A stretch of DNA of 64,000 nt. It comes from an uncultured bacterium (GTDB lineage: Bacteria; Patescibacteriota; Minisyncoccia; Phycocordibacterales; CAIRYW01). The position numbers were made by a program, and so were the translations under genes. Under the pieces are notes generated by a model. That model worked only from the letters and a program-made list of their open reading frames with translations, had not been told where the DNA came from and made no database searches. Shown here in pieces: positions 3,108 through 27,666 of the stretch (position 1 is its first letter; every line of letters starts with the position of its first letter). Location of the stretch: NCBI GenBank assembly GCA_903882905.1, contig CAIRYW010000019.1, positions 1,406 to 65,405 on the forward strand, written 5' to 3'.

Positions 3108-3391
3108 CCCAGCACCTTTTTATGCACTATGTGTATGTAATACAAAGCATTATTGATAAAAGTTTATATTTTGGCATTACTAATGATCTAAGCCGTCGCC
3201 TGTTAGAGCATAATGATAAGAAAAATTTTTCCACGAGTTATAAAGGTCCATGGAGGTATGTGTACATTGAAGGATATTTAAGTAGGAAAGATGCTGCTTT
3301 GAGAGAAAAAATTTTTAAGCATTACGGTAATGCACGGACTTATGTTAAACGTCGATTGAAAAATAGTTTAAGTGCATAAGAAGGTGCTGGG
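3108..3391. mobile_element. CCCAGCAC-family inverted-repeat element carrying a GIY-YIG nuclease gene
   Basis: cccagcacctt (3108-3118) and aaggtgctggg (3381-3391) tightly enclose ORF 3122-3379, between pilM and pilN. Confidence 0.7.
3122..3379 (+). CDS. Small GIY-YIG nuclease family protein
   Basis: YVYVIQS...LYFGITNDLSRRLLEHN...ALRE. Confidence 0.85.
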   Translation: MHYVYVIQSIIDKSLYFGITNDLSRRLLEHNDKKNFSTSYKGPWRYVYIEGYLSRKDAALREKIFKHYGNARTYVKRRLKNSLSA

Positions 3392-7369: not shown

Positions 7370-8431
7370 ATGGATTACGACAAAGAAATCAAAGAATTAC
7401 TCGAAACTGTCATAAGAGAGGGAGCGTCCGATTTACATATTTCAGAAAAAAGACACCCAACTATTAGGGTTTCAGGTAATTTAATTCCGCTTGTGAAAAA
7501 AGAAGCATTTTCAACACAAGATACCAGAGGAATACTTCGAAAATTGGTTAAACCAGAACTTGAAGATGCTTTTGAAAAAAATAAAGAAATAGATTTTTCA
7601 TATGAATTTGAAGGAAAAGCACGTTTTAGAGGAAATGCTTTTTTCCAACAAGGGCATATTTCAATTGCCCTACGATTAATTCCTAAAATAATTCAATCCC
7701 TTGAAGAATTAAAACTTCCAGCAATTTTGGGTGATTTTGCAAAGAAGAAGCAGGGATTCTTTTTGGTTGTTGGTCCCGTTGGGCAAGGAAAGACTACAAC
7801 TCTTGCCTCGATGGTTGAATTAATAAACCAAGAAAGAGCCGAACACATTGTGACAATTGAAGATCCTATCGAATATGCTTATGATCAAAAAAAATCAATC
7901 ATCGATCAGCGCGAAGTAAGAATTGATACAAAAGATTTTCACTCTGCTCTTATTTCAACTCTCAGAGAAGATATGAATGTGATCATGGTAGGAGAGATGA
8001 GAGACCCTGAGACAATGTCAGCTGCTGTAACAGCGGCAGAAACAGGTCACTTGGTATTTTCTACACTACATACAAATAATGCCGCTCAGACTATTGATAG
8101 AATTATTGACTCATTTCCTCCAGGACAGCAGGAACAAATTAGAATTCAACTTGCGGGATCTCTCATTGGAGTATTTTCACAAAGACTTATTCCTAGAATT
8201 TCAGGTGGAAGAATTCCTGCTTATGAATTAATGATTGCGAATGATGCAGTAGCAAACTTGATTCGTGAAAAAAGAGTTCATGAAATTGATACTGTAATTG
8301 AGACAAGCTCAGAGCAGGGAATGATTGATATGAATAGATGTTTGGCTGATTTGGTGCGTGCTGGGGAAATCACAATCGAAAATGCTTATAAGTTTGCATT
8401 TAAACCAAAGTCGCTTGAGAAGATGTTGTAG
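7370..8431 (+). CDS. pilT: Pilus retraction ATPase PilT
   Basis: ASDLH, GPVGQGKTTT, EDPIEY, GEMRD, AAETGHLVFSTLHT, AVANLIRE. Confidence 0.95.
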   Translation: MDYDKEIKELLETVIREGASDLHISEKRHPTIRVSGNLIPLVKKEAFSTQDTRGILRKLVKPELEDAFEKNKEIDFSYEFEGKARFRGNAFFQQGHISIALRLIPKIIQSLEELKLPAILGDFAKKKQGFFLVVGPVGQGKTTTLASMVELINQERAEHIVTIEDPIEYAYDQKKSIIDQREVRIDTKDFHSALISTLREDMNVIMVGEMRDPETMSAAVTAAETGHLVFSTLHTNNAAQTIDRIIDSFPPGQQEQIRIQLAGSLIGVFSQRLIPRISGGRIPAYELMIANDAVANLIREKRVHEIDTVIETSSEQGMIDMNRCLADLVRAGEITIENAYKFAFKPKSLEKML

Positions 8432-8464
8432 AAATTAAGGAGCAAAGCGACTATAATTTCAAAA

Positions 8465-8590
8465 CCCAGTACTAACTTTTCGGAACAATTTAAAAAAAAT
8501 GAGAATTAATAAATTACATAACATATTGAAAATAAAAATCAGTCAGACGACTGATTTTTGTGGTAAATTATCAGAAAAGTTAGTGCTGGG
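8465..8590. repeat. CCCAGCAC-family inverted-repeat element (non-coding)
   Basis: cccagtactaacttttc (8465-8481) and gaaaagttagtgctggg (8574-8590), with an internal hairpin aaaaatcagtc-agac-gactgattttt. Confidence 0.75.
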
Positions 8591-8630
8591 TGGCGATTTT
8601 AATACTCGCTTCACTCGTTAAAAATCAGCC

Positions 8631-9830
8631 ATGCTCTTCAACTACAAAGCCATAGATCCAAAAGGTACTCAAATAAGCGGATCAGTAGATGCCGTTTCTA
8701 CTGATAGTGCTATTTCCTCAATTCAAAAAAGAGGACTTGTAATTGTTAGTATCAATGAAGCAAAAAAAGGATTTAATCAGACTTTCAGTTTTTTAAACCG
8801 AGTAAAAAATAAAGATATAGTTATCCTTTCAAGACAAATTGCCACTCTTTTCACCGCTCAAGTTTCAGCTCTTAGAGTCTTTAGAATGCTTTCTGACCAA
8901 ACAGATAATCCAGCACTTGGTGTAGTGCTTGTTGAAGTTGCAAGTGATTTGCAAGGGGGAACCTCTATATCAAAAGCTCTATCAAAACATCCAAAAGTTT
9001 TTTCAAATTTCTATGTAAATATGGTTAAAGCAGGGGAGGAGTCTGGGAAACTTGATCTTACTTTTACATACTTGGCAGATTATCTAGATAGAAATTTTGC
9101 AGTAACATCAAAAGCAAAAAATGCTCTGATTTATCCAGCTTTCGTAATTTTTACTTTTATTGTTGTTATGGCTGTGATGTTTACAGTTGTTATCCCTCAG
9201 ATAACTTCGATTATTACTGATGCTGGTCAAGCTATTCCTTTATCTACTCAAATAGTTATCGGTATTAGTAATTTCCTGAGAGATTACGGAATATTTTTAG
9301 TTATTGCAATATTAATTGCAGGTTTTTTTGTTATCAAATACAGCAGAACCGAAAAAGGTTCTTACGCCTTATCCGAATTTCAGTTGCTAGTTCCATATGT
9401 TGGGACTTTATATAAAAAACTTTATCTTTCAAGAATTGCAGATAATATGAACACCTTACTTACTTCTGGAGTACCTATGGTCCGTGCACTTGAACTTACA
9501 GCAGATGTTGTTGATAACAGGGTTTATCAAACGATTCTTCTTGCTTCATTAGAAGCCGTGAAAGCTGGTAGCACTCTTTCTGATGCTTTTTCAAAATATG
9601 AGCAAATTCCGGGGATTATTGTTCAAATGGTAAAAGTTGGAGAGGAGACAGGGGAACTCGGAAAAATTTTGGAAACTTTAGCAAAGTTTTACGAAAGAGA
9701 GGTAGTAAATGCTGTTGATACTCTTGTTGATTTAATTGAACCTGTCATGATTGTTGTGTTAGGTTTGGGTGTCGCCTTTTTGCTTGTTTCTGTGCTTATG
9801 CCTATCTACAACTTGTCCTCGTCAATTTAA
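8631..9830 (+). CDS. pilC: Type IV pilus platform protein PilC (T2SSF family)
   Basis: MVKAGEESGKLD, ALIYP, MVKVGEETGEL, LIEP. Confidence 0.95.
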   Translation: MLFNYKAIDPKGTQISGSVDAVSTDSAISSIQKRGLVIVSINEAKKGFNQTFSFLNRVKNKDIVILSRQIATLFTAQVSALRVFRMLSDQTDNPALGVVLVEVASDLQGGTSISKALSKHPKVFSNFYVNMVKAGEESGKLDLTFTYLADYLDRNFAVTSKAKNALIYPAFVIFTFIVVMAVMFTVVIPQITSIITDAGQAIPLSTQIVIGISNFLRDYGIFLVIAILIAGFFVIKYSRTEKGSYALSEFQLLVPYVGTLYKKLYLSRIADNMNTLLTSGVPMVRALELTADVVDNRVYQTILLASLEAVKAGSTLSDAFSKYEQIPGIIVQMVKVGEETGELGKILETLAKFYEREVVNAVDTLVDLIEPVMIVVLGLGVAFLLVSVLMPIYNLSSSI

Positions 9831-9852
9831 GGAGAAAAAACTTAGAGGCTTA

Positions 9853-9907
9853 AAAACCTGCGAGGCTAAGCCTCAAGGATTTTAAGAGGCTTAGCCTCGC
9901 AGGTTTT
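9853..9907. repeat. 22-bp inverted repeat made of two AGG-N5-CCT mini-palindromes (REP-like)
   Basis: aaaacctgcgaggctaagcctc and gaggcttagcctcgcaggtttt. Confidence 0.75.
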
Positions 9908-9921
9908 CACTACAAAATTTG

Positions 9922-9961
9922 CCCAGCACCTTCTTTTGCTGCAGCAAAAGAAGGTGCTGGG
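9922..9961. repeat. Perfect 40-bp palindrome; minimal CCCAGCAC-family element
   Basis: cccagcaccttcttttgctg|cagcaaaagaaggtgctggg. Confidence 0.85.
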
Positions 9962-10127
9962 TTTTCCACACCCTATTTTTTTTAAAAAGTATTTAATGTA
10001 TAATTACAGGACAATTAAAAACAAATTCGCTCGGGTCGAATCGAGCAGAAATTAATTTAAAAGTTATTAGCGTGCCCTCTCAAGTTTTTTGAAGAAAAAT
10101 TTGTTAGGGTTATAAATTACTAAAAAA

Positions 10128-10496
10128 ATGAATAAACAAAAAGGTTTTACACTGATCGAACTTTTGGTTGTTATTGCAATCATTGGTATTTTGTCTGCAG
10201 TTGTTCTTACATCATTGACTGGAGCAAGAACGAAGGCTCAAACAGCAGCATATAAAGCAGAACTAGCTGGTTTGCAACCTGCATTGATTAGCGATTGTGA
10301 TACTGGAGCTTTAACAACTGGTGCTGGTGATTTAATTGCGAATGGTCAACATTCTCTTGGAACCGTAAGTGCTCAGACTTGTGCTACAAATGGAGGAACA
10401 TTTACTGTTGGTTTCACTGTCGGTACGGGTAAATCAGGAGGTACTTGTACAGCTGGCCAGATAACAGATTCTGCTGTAACGTTTACTGGTTGTTAA
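10128..10496 (+). CDS. Type IV pilin (probable major pilin)
   Basis: KG|FTLIELLVVIAIIGIL; has its own upstream TATAAT and a downstream terminator. Confidence 0.9.
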   Translation: MNKQKGFTLIELLVVIAIIGILSAVVLTSLTGARTKAQTAAYKAELAGLQPALISDCDTGALTTGAGDLIANGQHSLGTVSAQTCATNGGTFTVGFTVGTGKSGGTCTAGQITDSAVTFTGC

Positions 10497-10524
10497 AAGA
10501 AGATCTAAGACTCACTACATAAGT

Positions 10525-10563
10525 AAAAAAACAGAATTCCTTAATTGGAGTTCTGTTTTTTTT
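10525..10563 (+). terminator. Intrinsic terminator after the first pilin
   Basis: acagaattcc-ttaatt-ggagttctgt followed by a T-run. Confidence 0.75.
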
Positions 10564-10616
10564 GAGTTGATTATATTCCTAAAAAAGTTGTATAATCTAT
10601 ATATAAATATATTAAA

Positions 10617-11030
10617 ATGAATAAACAAAAAGGTTTTACACTTATCGAACTTTTGGTTGTTATCGCAATCATTGGTATTTTGTCTGCAGTTGTTCTTACA
10701 TCATTGACTAGTGCGAGAACAAAAGCAAGGAGGGGGGCTGCTATTTCGACTATGCAAGGTATTATGCATGAATTCTTAATTTGTGATATTGATGGTGGAT
10801 ATGGTCTAACAACTGCAATCACTGCTGGTACATCATATGTCTGTGTAAGTGCATCAGGAGGCACAACTGCCATGGCTGGTCATACAATCACTTGGCCAAG
10901 CATAGCAAACACTGGTTATGCTTATGCAACTCCTGCAGGTCTTCTTTCTGCTGGAACATATCAATATACTGCAACTATTTCTGGTGGACCCACAATTACA
11001 TGTACTCCCTCGACAAACGTCTGTAGTTAA
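10617..11030 (+). CDS. Type IV pilin
   Basis: KG|FTLIE class III signal; C-terminal Cys pair. Confidence 0.9.
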   Translation: MNKQKGFTLIELLVVIAIIGILSAVVLTSLTSARTKARRGAAISTMQGIMHEFLICDIDGGYGLTTAITAGTSYVCVSASGGTTAMAGHTITWPSIANTGYAYATPAGLLSAGTYQYTATISGGPTITCTPSTNVCS

Positions 11031-11120
11031 AATTGTCTGGATAAAATTTACAGTCCTATTAAAATAAAATAATTGTCCTCGATCACTATAATTAATATTT
11101 TTTCGTGTTAAAATATTTAC

Positions 11121-11486
11121 ATGAAAAAAGGTTTTACACTTATCGAACTTTTAGTTGTTATTGCAATAATTGGTATTTTGTCTTCTGTGGTTCTTACGTC
11201 TTTGAATGGTGCGAGAGACAAAGCAAAAATTTCTGCTTTCAAGTCTGAACTTTCTTCTCTTCAGTCTGGGTTGGTAAGTATTTGTGATTCTAGAGATATT
11301 GATGTTGCAACTGATACTCCAGCAATTGGTGCCCATAGCGCAGCTGATATTGCGAGTTTTGCACAAAGTTGTGCCGATGACACCGACCCGGTTTATACAT
11401 TTAGTGTTACATTCACTCCAACAAATGGTGCTGCCTGCACTGATGGGACTATCACTGATTCTACTACTACGTACACTGGTTGCTAA
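11121..11486 (+). CDS. Type IV pilin (paralog of 10128)
   Basis: MKKG|FTLIE; C-terminus TYTGC. Confidence 0.9.
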   Translation: MKKGFTLIELLVVIAIIGILSSVVLTSLNGARDKAKISAFKSELSSLQSGLVSICDSRDIDVATDTPAIGAHSAADIASFAQSCADDTDPVYTFSVTFTPTNGAACTDGTITDSTTTYTGC

Positions 11487-11536
11487 TAAAAATAGTTTTA
11501 TAGTACTTGTTGGTGATACTAAGTGATTTTCAAAAT

Positions 11537-12019
11537 ATGAAAAAAGGTTTTACCCAGCACCAAGTTTTCACAAAACAAGAGTTAATCAAGCGTAAGTTTT
11601 CTATTAGAAAACTTAGTGCTGGGTTTACACTTATCGAACTTTTAGTTGTTATTGCAATAATTGGTATTTTGTCTTCTGTGGTTCTTACGTCTCTAAGTGG
11701 GGCACAAGATAAAGCTAGAAAAGCTGCGGTGATTTCAAGCTTGCAGAGTATTATGCACGAACTTACAATGTGTGATATTGATGGTGGTTTTGGTAGAACG
11801 GAAAACCCTATAGTAGCTGGCGATTATATATGTGTCACTCCAAGTGGAACTGTTAATACTCCTATGACAAATCATACGGCTACTTGGCCAAACATTACAG
11901 GTATTGGTGGTACATATGGGAGTGCTAGGAATGCATTTTCAACTGGAACCTATTCTTATATAGCGACAGTTAATGGTGCAACCATAACTTGTACTTACTC
12001 AACCCAAGTTTGTAGTTAA
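11537..12019 (+). CDS. Type IV pilin (paralog of 10617) with a 25-codon insertion in the leader
   Basis: MKKGFT[QHQVF...KLSAGFT]LIELL; ATG 11537. Confidence 0.9.
   Translation: MKKGFTQHQVFTKQELIKRKFSIRKLSAGFTLIELLVVIAIIGILSSVVLTSLSGAQDKARKAAVISSLQSIMHELTMCDIDGGFGRTENPIVAGDYICVTPSGTVNTPMTNHTATWPNITGIGGTYGSARNAFSTGTYSYIATVNGATITCTYSTQVCS
11553..11623. mobile_element. CCCAGCAC-family MITE inserted in frame in a pilin leader, with TTTA target-site duplication
   Basis: 17-bp IR cccagcaccaagttttc / gaaaacttagtgctggg; TTTA at 11549-11552 and 11624-11627; the empty site is visible in paralog 11121. Confidence 0.85.
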
Positions 12020-12056
12020 AAACTTTTAGTATAGATAATTGTGTTAAAATGTTCTT

Positions 12057-12509
12057 ATGGAAAAAGGATTTTCATTAATGGAACTCATGGTTGCTGTTGC
12101 GGTCATCGGTATTTTGACTGCTGTGGTTATTCCTTCATATTTGTCTTCAAAAGCAAGGTCTAGAGATGCTATTCGTCTCGGAGACTTAAAGAGTATTTCT
12201 TTGGCTATACAAAATTCTTGGCAAGAAAGTGGTTATACAACTTGGCCACAAAGTTTATCCGATATTTCCTCATATTTTAATGGCGTAATACCCACTGATC
12301 CGTCTGATCATTCACAATATTTATATACTCCCTATAGTCTTGATAGGGCAACTCAGATTGGCAATGATCCAAGTACTCAGAAAAAAGATTTTTGTCTTGG
12401 AACGAAAATGGAAGTAATATCGGCAACAACTACTTGCAATATGCAGGATGCTTATGCCCAAGGTAAAAGTTATCCAACTGGTTACAATTATACTTATGTA
12501 GGGCCGTAG
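12057..12509 (+). CDS. Pilin/pseudopilin (GspG-like)
   Basis: KG|FSLMELMV, ARSRDAIRLGDL, IPTDP. Confidence 0.85.
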   Translation: MEKGFSLMELMVAVAVIGILTAVVIPSYLSSKARSRDAIRLGDLKSISLAIQNSWQESGYTTWPQSLSDISSYFNGVIPTDPSDHSQYLYTPYSLDRATQIGNDPSTQKKDFCLGTKMEVISATTTCNMQDAYAQGKSYPTGYNYTYVGP

Positions 12510-12534
12510 TTTTTCATTATGTTATAATTTACAT

Positions 12535-13356
12535 ATGTTTTATTATCTTTCAGCAGTAATTTTTGTTGTCGGTACGATTATTGGCAGTTTTCTTAATGTC
12601 GTCGCTCTTAGAATCAATACTGGTAAGGGCTTAATGGGTAGGTCTTTTTGCATGTCTTGTGGAAAGACAATAAAATCATATGATCTTTTTCCTATCTTGA
12701 GTTTTCTATCTCTGGGTGGAAAATCCCGTTGTTGCAAGACAAAAATTTCTTGGCAGTATCCTTTGGTTGAATTTATCACAGGACTAATTTTTCTTTCAGT
12801 TTTTTTAAAGTTTTATAGTCTTGCATACGTTCCAGTTTTGGTTCCAACTTTTTGGTATTTAGCTTTTTGTATTTTGATTGTTATCACGATTTATGATGTA
12901 AGACATCAGATTATTCCAGATTTTCTTTCATATACTTTTGCATTTTTATCTGTTTTATATTTTGTTGGAGATAAAAGTCTTACAAGTATTTTTTCTTATC
13001 CAGAAATTTTAAATTTTTTGGCTGGCCCAATTATTTTTGCTGTGTTCTCTTTGGTTTGGTTTGTTTCAAAAGGGAGATGGATTGGTTTTGGAGATGGAAA
13101 ACTAGCCCTTGGAATGGGGTTTGCATTAGGATTTTCAGAAGCTCTTTCGGCAATTGCTTTTGCCTTTTGGATCGGGGCAATCTGGAGTATTTTTATACTA
13201 CTTTTTCAAAAACTTGGTATTGCAAAAAGTAAATTTAATTTTAAGAGCGCTGTGCCGTTTGCACCATTTATGATTGCGGGATTTCTTTTGGCTTTTATTT
13301 TGAGCGCTGATGTTTTTAGTTTAAATATGTTAATTTTTGGCCCAGCACCTTTTTAA
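12535..13356 (+). CDS. pilD: Prepilin peptidase (A24)
   Basis: GSFLNV, RSFCMSC, YD...IIPD, GFGDGKL, VPFAPF. Confidence 0.92.
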   Translation: MFYYLSAVIFVVGTIIGSFLNVVALRINTGKGLMGRSFCMSCGKTIKSYDLFPILSFLSLGGKSRCCKTKISWQYPLVEFITGLIFLSVFLKFYSLAYVPVLVPTFWYLAFCILIVITIYDVRHQIIPDFLSYTFAFLSVLYFVGDKSLTSIFSYPEILNFLAGPIIFAVFSLVWFVSKGRWIGFGDGKLALGMGFALGFSEALSAIAFAFWIGAIWSIFILLFQKLGIAKSKFNFKSAVPFAPFMIAGFLLAFILSADVFSLNMLIFGPAPF

Positions 13357-13440
13357 TTTGTTAAAATCATGAGTTTAATTAAAATAATAAAAAAATATTT
13401 TTCAAAAAAAAATCTTAATGAAGTACAAAAAGGTGCTGGG
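13341..13440. mobile_element. CCCAGCAC-family element spanning the pilD stop and the next pilin's start and leader
   Basis: Perfect 14-bp IR cccagcaccttttt / aaaaaggtgctggg. Confidence 0.75.
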
Positions 13441-14076
13441 TTCACCCTCGTCGAAATGATGGTGGTCGTGGCTATTGTAATTGTCATGACTTCTATTTTG
13501 CTTTTGAAACAATCAAAGTTTTCAAGTGATATTTTGGTTACAAACGCTGCTTACGAAGTAGCCCTCTCAATCCGAGAAGCTCAAGTTTATGGTATTAGTT
13601 CCAAACAAACTTCCACAAATTTAAATGTTGGATATGGAATATATTTAGACAATTCATCCACAAATTCTTTTACTATTTATTCTGATGGCGGCTATTCTAG
13701 TAGTAATACATATAATTACACTTTTAATTACGGAGATACTGGCGAATCTTATGTTTCAATAGAAAATCCTCAACTTACACAAGGTCAGACAATAAAAAAA
13801 ATTTGCGTTGCTTCGACAATGAATAATATTAGTTGTTCTGATACTGATTCAACGCTCACAAAACTTAATATAGGTTTTATAAAGCCAAACCCTGAAGCTT
13901 TAATATATAAAAATGGTACTACTGGTACATCAAATAGGCTAAATGAAGCTTTTATAGTCGTTGCATCTGTTCTTGGAGATAAATGTAGAGTCGTCCGAAT
14001 AACTTCTATTGGACAAATATCAGTTGATACTCCTCGTCCTCTAGGTGACGAATGTACCGCTTTACCAACATTATGA
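13369..14076 (+). CDS. Minor pilin (FimT/GspH-like)
   Basis: KGAG|FTLVEMMVVVAI. Confidence 0.85.
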   Translation: MSLIKIIKKYFSKKNLNEVQKGAGFTLVEMMVVVAIVIVMTSILLLKQSKFSSDILVTNAAYEVALSIREAQVYGISSKQTSTNLNVGYGIYLDNSSTNSFTIYSDGGYSSSNTYNYTFNYGDTGESYVSIENPQLTQGQTIKKICVASTMNNISCSDTDSTLTKLNIGFIKPNPEALIYKNGTTGTSNRLNEAFIVVASVLGDKCRVVRITSIGQISVDTPRPLGDECTALPTL

Positions 14077-14639
14077 TAATAAAAAAAATAAAACAAAAAA
14101 ATATTGATGGTTTTACACTTATCGAATTAATGGTTTCTGTTAGTATTTTCGCTATTGTCGTTTTGGTTTCTATAACTGCAATCCTTGCAATTGTTGAAGC
14201 AAATAAAAAAGCTCAAGCTTTGGATGACGTAATAAACAATATGAATTTTAGTGTTGAAAGTATGGTAAGAGATTTAAGGACAGGCTATAACTATACTTGT
14301 TATATAAATGGAAGTTATGGAGCTTGTCCTTCTAATTCGGCAGTAAGCTCGATTACTTTTTTTTCTAGTATCTCTGGTTGTAATGTTACATATCATTTGG
14401 CTAGTAATGCGATTTATAAAAATATTTCATGTAACGGCGGAACTGACATGTCTCTTACTCCAAGTAATATTAATGTCAGTCGGTTTGATCTTTATGTTTC
14501 AAACCCTGCTTATGTTGCTCCTAATTACACACAACCAATTATTCTTATGGTTCTTCAAGCTAAAGCAAGTGTAGGAAAGCAATCAACTGAATTTGATTTG
14601 CAAACTTTAATTTCACAAAGGAGATTAAATATCCAATAA
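14073..14639 (+). CDS. Minor pilin (PilW/GspJ-like)
   Basis: DG|FTLIELMVSVSIF, MVRDLRTG; ATGA overlap with the previous gene. Confidence 0.85.
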   Translation: MIIKKIKQKNIDGFTLIELMVSVSIFAIVVLVSITAILAIVEANKKAQALDDVINNMNFSVESMVRDLRTGYNYTCYINGSYGACPSNSAVSSITFFSSISGCNVTYHLASNAIYKNISCNGGTDMSLTPSNINVSRFDLYVSNPAYVAPNYTQPIILMVLQAKASVGKQSTEFDLQTLISQRRLNIQ

Positions 14640-14645
14640 TATGAA

Positions 14646-14743
14646 CCCAGCACCTTTATCTTTTCAAAATCATGAACTTCATAAATAAAACAAAAAAATA
14701 TTTTTTAAAGAAAAATTTATACAAAGCACATAAAGGTGCTGGG
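14646..14743. mobile_element. CCCAGCAC-family element supplying the start codon and leader of a minor pilin
   Basis: cccagcacctttat / ataaaggtgctggg; interior homologous to 13341-13440. Confidence 0.75.
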
Positions 14744-15292
14744 TTCACATTAATTGAAACTATGGTTGCAATTACCATCCTTCTTGTAACTATTGTTGGA
14801 CCGATGGAGATCGCTTCGAAAGCTTTATTTTCTGCTTTTTATGCTAGAGATCAAATAACTGCATATTATTTAGCACAAGAGGGTATAGAGTCTTTAAGAA
14901 ACTTCAGAGATGTTTATTATTTAAATGGCTTTACTGGTTGGCCTTCTTTTGTGACAGATTGTTCATATGACGGGATAAGTAAGTATGGGTGTAAAGTTGG
15001 TGCTTCTAGTGGTGCGAATCCTGTTTATAGTGTATTAAAATGTACTGCTAAATGTGATACACCTAGTGATGCCCTATATTACAATAGTGGGAATGGTATA
15101 TATTCTTATATTACTGATTCTGGTAATACCAAATCAAAATATACTAGATTAGTGAAAGTTACCCCAGATGCAACAAATCCTAATGATGCCGCGCTCGTTG
15201 AATCGACAGTTTATTGGACAGGAAGTTATCTATCGAGCGGTACAAAATCTTTTACAATAAAAGAAATGCTTTATAACTGGCAGACGAAATAA
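14672..15292 (+). CDS. Minor pilin (PilV-like)
   Basis: KGAG|FTLIETMVAI, AYYLAQEGIE. Confidence 0.85.
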   Translation: MNFINKTKKYFLKKNLYKAHKGAGFTLIETMVAITILLVTIVGPMEIASKALFSAFYARDQITAYYLAQEGIESLRNFRDVYYLNGFTGWPSFVTDCSYDGISKYGCKVGASSGANPVYSVLKCTAKCDTPSDALYYNSGNGIYSYITDSGNTKSKYTRLVKVTPDATNPNDAALVESTVYWTGSYLSSGTKSFTIKEMLYNWQTK

Positions 15293-15301
15293 ATAAGAAT
15301 T

Positions 15302-15838
15302 ATGACAAAAGATTTAAGATTTAAGAATAAAAAAGAAAATGTAGGGTTTACACTCCTGTATGCCTCAATGATTGCAGGTCTTTTACTCGCTATTGGAGCA
15401 GCGATACTTAGTATTACTGTAAAACAAATTTCACTTTCTGCCGCTGGGAGAGAGTCGCAGTTTGCATTTTACAATGCAGATACAGGAACAGAATGTGCAG
15501 TTTATTGGTATAGAACGTCAAAAACCGGTATTTGTCCAGCTGGCCTTTTTCCACCAAAAAGTGATAGTACAAACGATCAGTCTTGCACTAATATAAGCTC
15601 AAATCCACCTAAATGTTTAGGATTGGCTTTGACTGACAAATATGGCGGGCAAATAACATCTTTTGCACAAACTGGGTTATATTCTTTTAGCATCACTTCT
15701 CAGGGTGCAAATAATATTTGCTTTGATGTAACAATTGACAAGAATACTGACCCAAGTAAAACTATAATAACCTCTAGAGGGTACAATACTTGTGATAAGG
15801 GGAACAGATTCGAGAGAGCAATTGAAGTTGATTTCTAG
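15302..15838 (+). CDS. Minor pilin (PilX-like, lacks Glu5)
   Basis: VG|FTLLYASMI, ESQFAFYNADTGTECA, IITSRG. Confidence 0.75.
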   Translation: MTKDLRFKNKKENVGFTLLYASMIAGLLLAIGAAILSITVKQISLSAAGRESQFAFYNADTGTECAVYWYRTSKTGICPAGLFPPKSDSTNDQSCTNISSNPPKCLGLALTDKYGGQITSFAQTGLYSFSITSQGANNICFDVTIDKNTDPSKTIITSRGYNTCDKGNRFERAIEVDF

Positions 15839-15849
15839 AACTGATTTAA

Positions 15850-17889
<2,040 letters not shown>

Positions 17890-27561: not shown

Positions 27562-27666
27562 GCCCAGCACATAGTTTTTCTGATTTCGTGCCATGTTGGT
27601 CTAATTTTGATATAATTAATACACATTGAGTTTTAATTTTCTACCCAGAAAAACTATGTGCTGGGC
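27562..27666. repeat. CCCAGCAC-family element upstream of ftsE
   Basis: Perfect 21-bp IR gcccagcacatagtttttctg / cagaaaaactatgtgctgggc; encloses TGATATAAT. Confidence 0.8.

Follow-up and report, generated by a model that had tools for sequence, protein, structure and literature searches.

Palindromic repeat elements holding the start codon and leader of two minor pilin genes in a Patescibacteriota type IV pilus locus

The pilus locus and the elements at two of its minor pilins

The DNA analysed here, a 64,000-nucleotide (nt) stretch of contig CAIRYW010000019.1 (the window), belongs to an uncultured, ultra-small Patescibacteriota bacterium with a genome of 746 kb and 35% GC, and the named homologs of the pilins in the window are from Candidatus Paceibacterota or Patescibacteria. 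The window carries a type IV pilus locus comprising genes which we take to be pilB, pilT and pilC, five pilins of the major type, the peptidase gene pilD and a set of four minor pilins. Two palindromic repeat elements, E1 at minor pilin 1 and E2 at minor pilin 3, are the subject of this study (table 1). In what follows G000 denotes the genome itself, G001, G002 and G003 are congeners, and L numbers stand for loci in these and other genomes.

Table 1. Positions of the genes, the two elements and further members of the repeat family in the window (aa, amino acids; ORF, open reading frame).
Feature	Position	Strand	Details
284-nt family member, arms enclose 85-aa GIY-YIG gene (3122-3379), candidate mobiliser	3108..3391	+	PF01541, E 1e-13
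126-nt copy of the family, flanked by pilT and pilC	8465..8590	.	
40-nt hairpin member between pilC and major pilins	9922..9961	.	
71-nt copy of the family, in frame within the leader of a major pilin	11553..11623	+	TTTA duplicated on both sides, native start kept
pilD, prepilin peptidase A24	12535..13356	+	PF06750 aa 11-93, PF01478 aa 109-219
E1, palindromic element, 100 nt	13341..13440	+	left arm 13341-13354, loop ATG 13369, right arm 13427-13440
Minor pilin 1, 24-aa leader within E1	13369..14076	+	PF07963
Minor pilin 2, no element	14073..14639	+	start in ORF list 14052
Old pilin-3 start, out of frame, 15-codon ORF through E2 left arm and beyond new ATG	14641..14688	+	same 5' context in G001
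E2, sister element, 98 nt	14646..14743	+	stem 14642-14659 pairs with 14730-14747, loop ATG 14672
Minor pilin 3, 24-aa leader within E2, likely loop donor	14672..15292	+	
Minor pilin 4, no element	15302..15838	+	begins GFTLLY
103-nt family member 5' of ftsE-like gene	27563..27665	.	orthologous copy in G001

Both elements have arms of the CCCAGCAC...GTGCTGGG type, begin with CCCAGCACC and finish with GGTGCTGGG at the prepilin cleavage site between Gly and Phe (G/F), the Gly of which is their final codon. The arms can form a stem of 14 Watson-Crick pairs (plus two G-U pairs) in E1 and of 18 in E2, with folding z values of -2.6 and -6.8, respectively. The ATG in each loop is the only reachable in-frame ATG of its pilin, because an in-frame stop precedes it, at +13 in E1 and at -4 in E2. 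Both elements read in frame into their pilins, and the left arm of E1 also supplies the last codons and the stop of PilD, which ends in FGPAPF as opposed to FGNVI and FSNVQ in the congeners. The PAPF tail falls outside the Pfam domains of PilD, which are intact.

The loops of E1 and E2 are identical at 52 of 72 positions, and their alignment score of 80 compares with 34.7 +/- 6.7 in 5000 dinucleotide shuffles, none of which reached 80, and with at most 45 among 128 stretches upstream of pilins from relatives. The likeness starts exactly at the left arm and stops 5 nt beyond the right arm; BLASTP found no significant similarity between the mature parts of pilins 1 and 3 (best E 0.18). According to the alignment count, the leader codons differ by ten amino-acid-changing and three silent substitutions and by no indels. 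The initial annotation had described two otherwise unrelated pilins with start codon and leader inside homologous elements, in the loops of 14-18-bp stems, that end at the cleavage site and in one case terminate pilD; all of this is borne out. Contigs from public sequencing runs cross E1 and E2 without any difference, which argues only against mis-assembly, because the runs may derive from the source sample.

The class III signal peptide of type IV prepilins consists of a basic leader, Gly-1, Phe+1, Glu+5 and a hydrophobic helix, and it is cut by an A24 peptidase. The products of minor pilins 1 and 3 agree with this scheme in all five features and in having the peptidase gene adjacent, the G/F-x-x-x-E signal is intact in both, and PF07963 and TIGR02532 are above cut-off for both; unlike in ordinary prepilins, the leader is 24 aa long and lies inside a hairpin element. 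PilD is predicted to remove the leader, so that the mature pilins would stay unchanged.

E1 and E2 are absent at these sites in all three congeners. In G003 the four minor pilins are element-free, their leaders are short and mutually unrelated, and PilD overlaps the ATG of pilin 1. In G001 pilin 1 is native, but pilins 2-4 carry another element, of 123 nt, where the native start and the duplicated target are kept and an extra internal ATG is present; in G002 the leader of pilin 3 is short and native. Measured against the congeners, the E1 junction lies two bases 5' of the old ATG and PilD's last codons have been replaced, and the E2 junction lies two bases 3' of the old ATG, which persists out of frame. 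Compared with the congeners, both pilins have lost their native leaders.

The leaders of homologs have a median of 16-17 aa, compared with 24 aa here. Among the eight nearest pilin-1 orthologs with a leader, four have an end of the LVCG/LVTG type and none has a leader of the E1/E2 type, which inspection also failed to find among the leaders of 70 pilin-1 homologs. For pilin 3, the 11 nearest orthologs include two in which a short GAG/SAG element follows the native start and one protein, P0090 (53% identity to pilin 3), with a leader of the E2 type (16 of 24 residues). Other repeat families occupy the same cleavage codons in relatives, with and without an internal ATG.

The repeat family and its candidate mobiliser

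G000 contains 15 copies of the repeat, 37-284 nt in length: nine are hairpins of 37-43 nt, five measure 71-126 nt and the longest has 284 nt. Four of the 15 end at a pilin G/F site, and six lie inside the 12 kb of the pilus locus, three of these outside pilin genes (binomial 8e-8). A 4-nt target duplication accompanies two of the copies. The family resembles miniature inverted-repeat transposable elements (MITEs) in its terminal inverted repeats (stems of 14 and 18 bp), its shortness and its several dispersed copies (15).

Beyond the host, short hairpins occur in three of the 21 genomes of its taxonomic family and long copies in 12 of the 401 genomes of its order, its own included in both counts; the right arm in front of TTYAC was found in none of the 20 other genomes of the family, and a scan of metagenomes returned one locus at 52% identity and nothing closer. 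Searching GTDB genomes for arms separated by 66-96 nt and with TTYAC next to them yielded 100 loci. Our filter placed 40 of these at prepilin sites, which the TTYAC pattern favours. An in-frame ATG lies within the element in 31 of the 40 prepilin copies and in 12 of the 60 non-pilin copies (Fisher 1e-8); when no upstream ATG is reachable, the prepilin copies have it in 17 of 18 cases. TTYA is present on the left in 33 of the 40 prepilin copies and lost in seven, as it is in E1 and E2, and five of those seven have an ATG no more than 10 nt from the left arm. Taken together, these copies read as a series in which the native start is kept, then the native frame is broken and finally the native leader is deleted. 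No pair links the loops of E1 and E2 to the loop of any other of the 100 loci; against 80 of them the score was 38 or less among the loops listed.

The family is likely to be mobilised by a small GIY-YIG nuclease, as suggested by the 284-nt member, in which one CCCAGCAC arm pair surrounds a gene for an 85-aa GIY-YIG protein that shares its reading frame with the GAG of the right arm. MITEs are moved in trans by a transposase with matching ends, and in this family the arms hold only a GIY-YIG gene. This gene is not flanked by a hairpin on each side like the NTS repeats of Neisseria, and its product matches NCBIfam models below cut-off only. Two further small GIY-YIG genes are found in other arm variants (G000:C10:2137-2349 and C21:20195-20407). 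The 85-aa protein is 33-35% identical to NTS-flanked proteins of G001.

Several side observations concern the family and its nucleases. Each of the three small GIY-YIG genes sits in a different arm variant, and a cassette closely matching that of C10 is present in G001 (L161); one of these variants has the right arm LVTG and another LVC-, and the same leader endings are seen in relatives. G001 also contains 97-aa GIY-YIG genes (L172, L174) with flanking NTS-like hairpins that match the Neisseria motif. Elsewhere in G000 a 38-nt hairpin lies in frame in another pilin leader (G000:C27:8182-8219), with a possible TTG start and no in-frame ATG upstream within the stretch examined, and a family hairpin lies near the 3' end of a 594-codon ORF (G000:C24:22730-22767). 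In G001 a near-identical 123-nt element occurs in three adjacent minor pilins (L036) and corresponds to the predicted intermediate state. Copies are nested or in tandem at one site in L077, L105, L123, L126 and L147; in L077 an additional left arm lies directly behind the native ATG, which may capture a stage in the formation of E2. The same arms form repeat families outside Patescibacteria (L057, L060, L062, L069, L134; L058, L071, L121), none of them at pilins, in loci labelled Desulfofundulus and methane-oxidising gammaproteobacteria. In the wider family many minor-pilin leaders are lengthened by other repeat-like peptides, some of which are common to neighbouring pilins (P0025-P0050, L012, L016).

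Origin of the loop and competing explanations

We hold with fair confidence that the loop is host pilin DNA, and pilin 3 is its likeliest donor. Native pilin-3 leaders start like the loop, so that the element probably carries its ATG and leader as cargo from the host. A start classifier that uses the first ten residues after Met, with ten pilin-3 and seven pilin-1 starts hand-picked as native, was correct for 14 of 17 starts when each was left out in turn. E1, E2 and P0090 obtained mean scores of 8.6, 4.3 and 3.8 against the native pilin-3 starts and of -10.6, -7.9 and -7.1 against the pilin-1 starts, and the three best matches of E1 among the stored proteins are pilin-3 orthologs. Since both leaders score as native pilin-3 starts and P0090 shares the leader, which is found in none of the 70 pilin-1 homologs, the unit was likely formed at pilin 3 and then copied to pilin 1.

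Three other accounts of the loop were tried and rejected. That long loops are always native sequence finds no support in the copy between pilT and pilC or in the copy at the ftsE-like gene, where element-free congeners have short, unrelated spacers. A general duplication of the start region across the left arm, as by template switching, is hardly seen, the longest shared stretch being 6.3 as opposed to 5.9 in the null; such a duplication is confined to L127, with 9 nt, and E2, with 5 nt. A genome-wide BLAST search gave no match that would make the loop a relic of the nuclease gene.

The explanation that we favour, and consider somewhat better than an even bet, is that E1 and E2 are a mobile palindrome which settled on cleavage codons, captured the start and leader of pilin 3, was copied to pilin 1 and became indispensable by default. 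A family member would have landed on the G/F codons of pilin 3, where its right arm rebuilds Gly-1. A rearrangement would then have set the left arm just behind the old ATG, leaving a copy of the start and leader in the loop and the old start out of frame. The unit, from arm to arm, would next have replaced the short native leader of pilin 1 and the last codons of PilD. In the end the sole start of both pilin genes would lie in the element, making it necessary to them by default, and the leader would drift as a throw-away peptide. No regulatory gain is required by this explanation. The initial annotation's notion of a portable start and leader cassette holds up, as one unit is found on two unrelated pilins and the pilin-1 orthologs have unrelated leaders; the accompanying idea, that the cassette has been domesticated to tune pilin stoichiometry, has against it the three congeners without elements, the other repeat families on the same codons and the ordinary predicted accessibility of the starts, and in its favour the conservation of the arms beyond that of neutral sites.

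A number of observations weigh against this account, the first group of them concerning the donor and the second the arms. Local alignment of whole leaders does not separate the pilin classes, E2 shares a 20-nt exact match with the leader of pilin 2 and the peptide INKTK with pilin 1 of G001, and the donor call is weak because the leaders are rich in A and Lys. P0090 is known from protein only, and in a tree of pilin-3 orthologs, with its key node unresolved, it is not placed as sister to pilin 3. No target-site duplication was found at E1 or E2. At the ftsE-like site the arms of G000 and G001 are identical at 33 of 34 positions and the loops at 47 of 71, while fourfold-site divergence between the two genomes, which for pilD was computed against G001 only, amounts to 36/83 in the ftsE-like gene and 48/92 in pilD (43-52%). 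In six disjoint pairs of pilin copies, the inner arm positions, namely those not fixed by the search pattern, differ at 3 of 72 sites where 13.9 would be expected; the pairs were hand-picked, and the selection includes L142, which the filter does not call a pilin, but neither two pairs that overlap nor two whose loops are 62-63% identical. The arms of E1 and E2 differ at 2 of 28 positions, which form one mirrored pair (P 0.014 for all 28 and 0.37 for the inner 12). Self-correction of the palindrome was rejected as the cause, as it predicts mirrored drift, of which there is none in the ftsE-like pair, and unmirrored changes dominate the non-pilin pairs. Something probably conserves the stem, the candidates including host selection and repeated conversion from active copies.

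Conservation of the arms beyond neutral expectation makes a host role conceivable, and an RNA element is the first alternative to consider, namely that host selection keeps the stems because they set the output of the minor pilins. This could proceed through coupling to upstream ribosomes, through the 15-codon out-of-frame ORF diverting ribosomes, or through RNase III processing or stabilisation of a polycistronic mRNA. Coupling is conceivable because the stop of PilD lies in the left arm of E1 and the stop of pilin 2 and the old ATG lie at the left arm of E2. The orthologs L099 and L136 both retain a start found in the loop only, and their loops are 83% identical in spite of differences at 21 of 29 fourfold sites. 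A sole in-loop ATG is found 6 nt or less from the stem in one of 20 copies, compared with six of 13 when the ATG is spare (Fisher 0.008, Mann-Whitney 0.055, the copies not being independent); that sole starts keep away from the stem suggests that the stem probably forms in mRNA. The old ATG of E2 has the lowest predicted accessibility of all starts tested (0.38), the genome has an RNase III family gene, and a review describes cleavage by RNase III at the ends of Correia elements (PMC10969869). Against this, the sites are empty in the congeners, different element families with and without an internal ATG sit on the same codons in close relatives, and the new starts are predicted not to be occluded, their unpaired fractions of 0.51 and 0.62 falling among the 0.40-0.71 of the other eight starts. 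It is this ordinary predicted accessibility that leaves stoichiometry tuning no more than a possibility. Moreover, arm conservation is seen also at a non-pilin site, and it could be imitated by parallel insertion or by conversion from active copies. We regard the RNA element as possible but rather unlikely.

A broader proposal, combining elements of these readings, is of a similarly tentative order and slightly less probable still: a nuclease-served hairpin system of Patescibacteria would capture translation starts in its loop and move them between pilin genes at the cleavage codon, and the host would keep the arms under selection for re-wiring the coupling and output of minor pilins, and likewise of other genes whose element has a promoter in its loop, with the mature proteins untouched. 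The element 5' of a gene that its sequence suggests to be ftsE-like is the best local candidate for domestication. This copy (L159) encloses a TATAAT-like hexamer.

Less probable again is that the hairpins serve as a DNA exchange module, kept as nicking or recombination points for the GIY-YIG nuclease so that 5' modules (start plus leader) or whole pilin genes are swapped at the boundary of leader and mature part; this we consider quite unlikely. The clustering of copies in the pilus locus, half of them outside pilin genes, would fit such a role, as would the near-identical leaders of neighbouring minor pilins in G001, G018 and G011, and Ssn nucleases are described as cutting single-stranded DNA at their own hairpins, with NTS clustering by surface genes (PMC11893778). 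However, local hopping together with tolerance of the leader accounts for the clustering, the nuclease is no closer to the NTS-flanked proteins of G001 than the modest identity given above, and four sequencing runs showed no joint or variant across the elements except short-sided joints, although contigs drop rare variants.

Finally, that the leaders are alike as a result of ancient gene duplication or A-rich convergence, with the arms incidental, is hardly credible: native pilin-3 leaders do resemble the loop and the leaders are of low complexity, but the mature parts are unalignable, the leaders of pilin-1 orthologs are unrelated and the congeners already contradict it, the likeness is bounded by the arms, and the loop score far exceeds the 128 background stretches. 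Orthologs with the same leader but lacking the left arm would have spoken for duplication, as the initial annotation pointed out; for pilin 1 the leaders turned out unrelated, and for pilin 3 the native leaders begin like the loop, which goes halfway towards it.

What the analysis contributes is a likely host origin of the loop, a likely direction of copying and a measure of arm conservation. On the one hand, if the favoured explanation holds, a repeat of no use to its host can still become impossible to delete, by seizing the only start codon at a place where the host peptidase erases the added peptide. On the other hand, the conservation of arms at fixed sites, so far unexplained, gives a handle on whether such repeats are domesticated. 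The favoured explanation would also account for the erratic and often over-long pilin leaders of Patescibacteria, which bear on start calling and annotation, and the candidate mobiliser belongs to a small GIY-YIG clade distinct from the Ssn motif described so far.

Relation to known elements and further features of the window

Rickettsia palindromic elements (RPEs) and other intragenic MITEs are short palindromic repeats that stand in frame at or in unrelated genes and add a peptide (PMC10969869). E1 and E2 resemble them in being short, palindromic and inserted in frame in coding genes. Unlike RPEs as described there, E1 and E2 sit at one motif, the prepilin cleavage site, PilD is expected to cut off the peptide they add, and they hold the only start of the gene; nor is there a conserved element peptide, the loops of the family not being one sequence. 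The text of that review contains neither 'pilin' nor 'start codon'. It also describes Correia elements of Neisseria, MITEs whose ends form a stem in mRNA and which, from a position upstream, provide promoters and RNase III sites. These share with E1 and E2 the hairpin ends and the giving of expression signals to a host gene, but what E1 and E2 bring is a start codon with its leader.

The second system to compare is Ssn, a single-domain GIY-YIG protein of about 90 aa tied to dispersed NTS/SRM hairpins which cluster near surface genes, 2% of the NTS being intragenic (PMC11893778). The 85-aa protein is likewise a single-domain GIY-YIG with a dispersed hairpin family. Unlike the SRM described there, the arms differ from the NTS motif and one arm pair encloses the gene instead of a full hairpin on each side, and the four of 15 copies in pilin genes contrast with the intragenic share of the NTS. 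Patescibacteria are not mentioned in the main text of that source or in 12 of its 14 supplements. E1 and E2 are filed under neither SRM nor RPE, because the SRM architecture and a conserved peptide are lacking and target duplication is absent. Our literature search, which most subscription journals lay beyond, found no account of hairpin elements at prepilin cleavage sites.

Among the remaining features of the window, the ATG of minor pilin 2 overlaps, as we read it, the stop of pilin 1. Searches of Pfam and NCBIfam gave no match for minor pilin 4, whose position is presumably PilX-like. An Rfam search of 8300-16000 returned nothing near the gathering score, and scans for promoters and terminators gave no more than chance would (12 as opposed to 14.9 and 2 as opposed to 1.9). 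G000 holds six palindromes of the dRS3 type, and a second, unrelated imperfect palindrome lies at 9835-9912, just 5' of the 40-nt hairpin that follows pilC.

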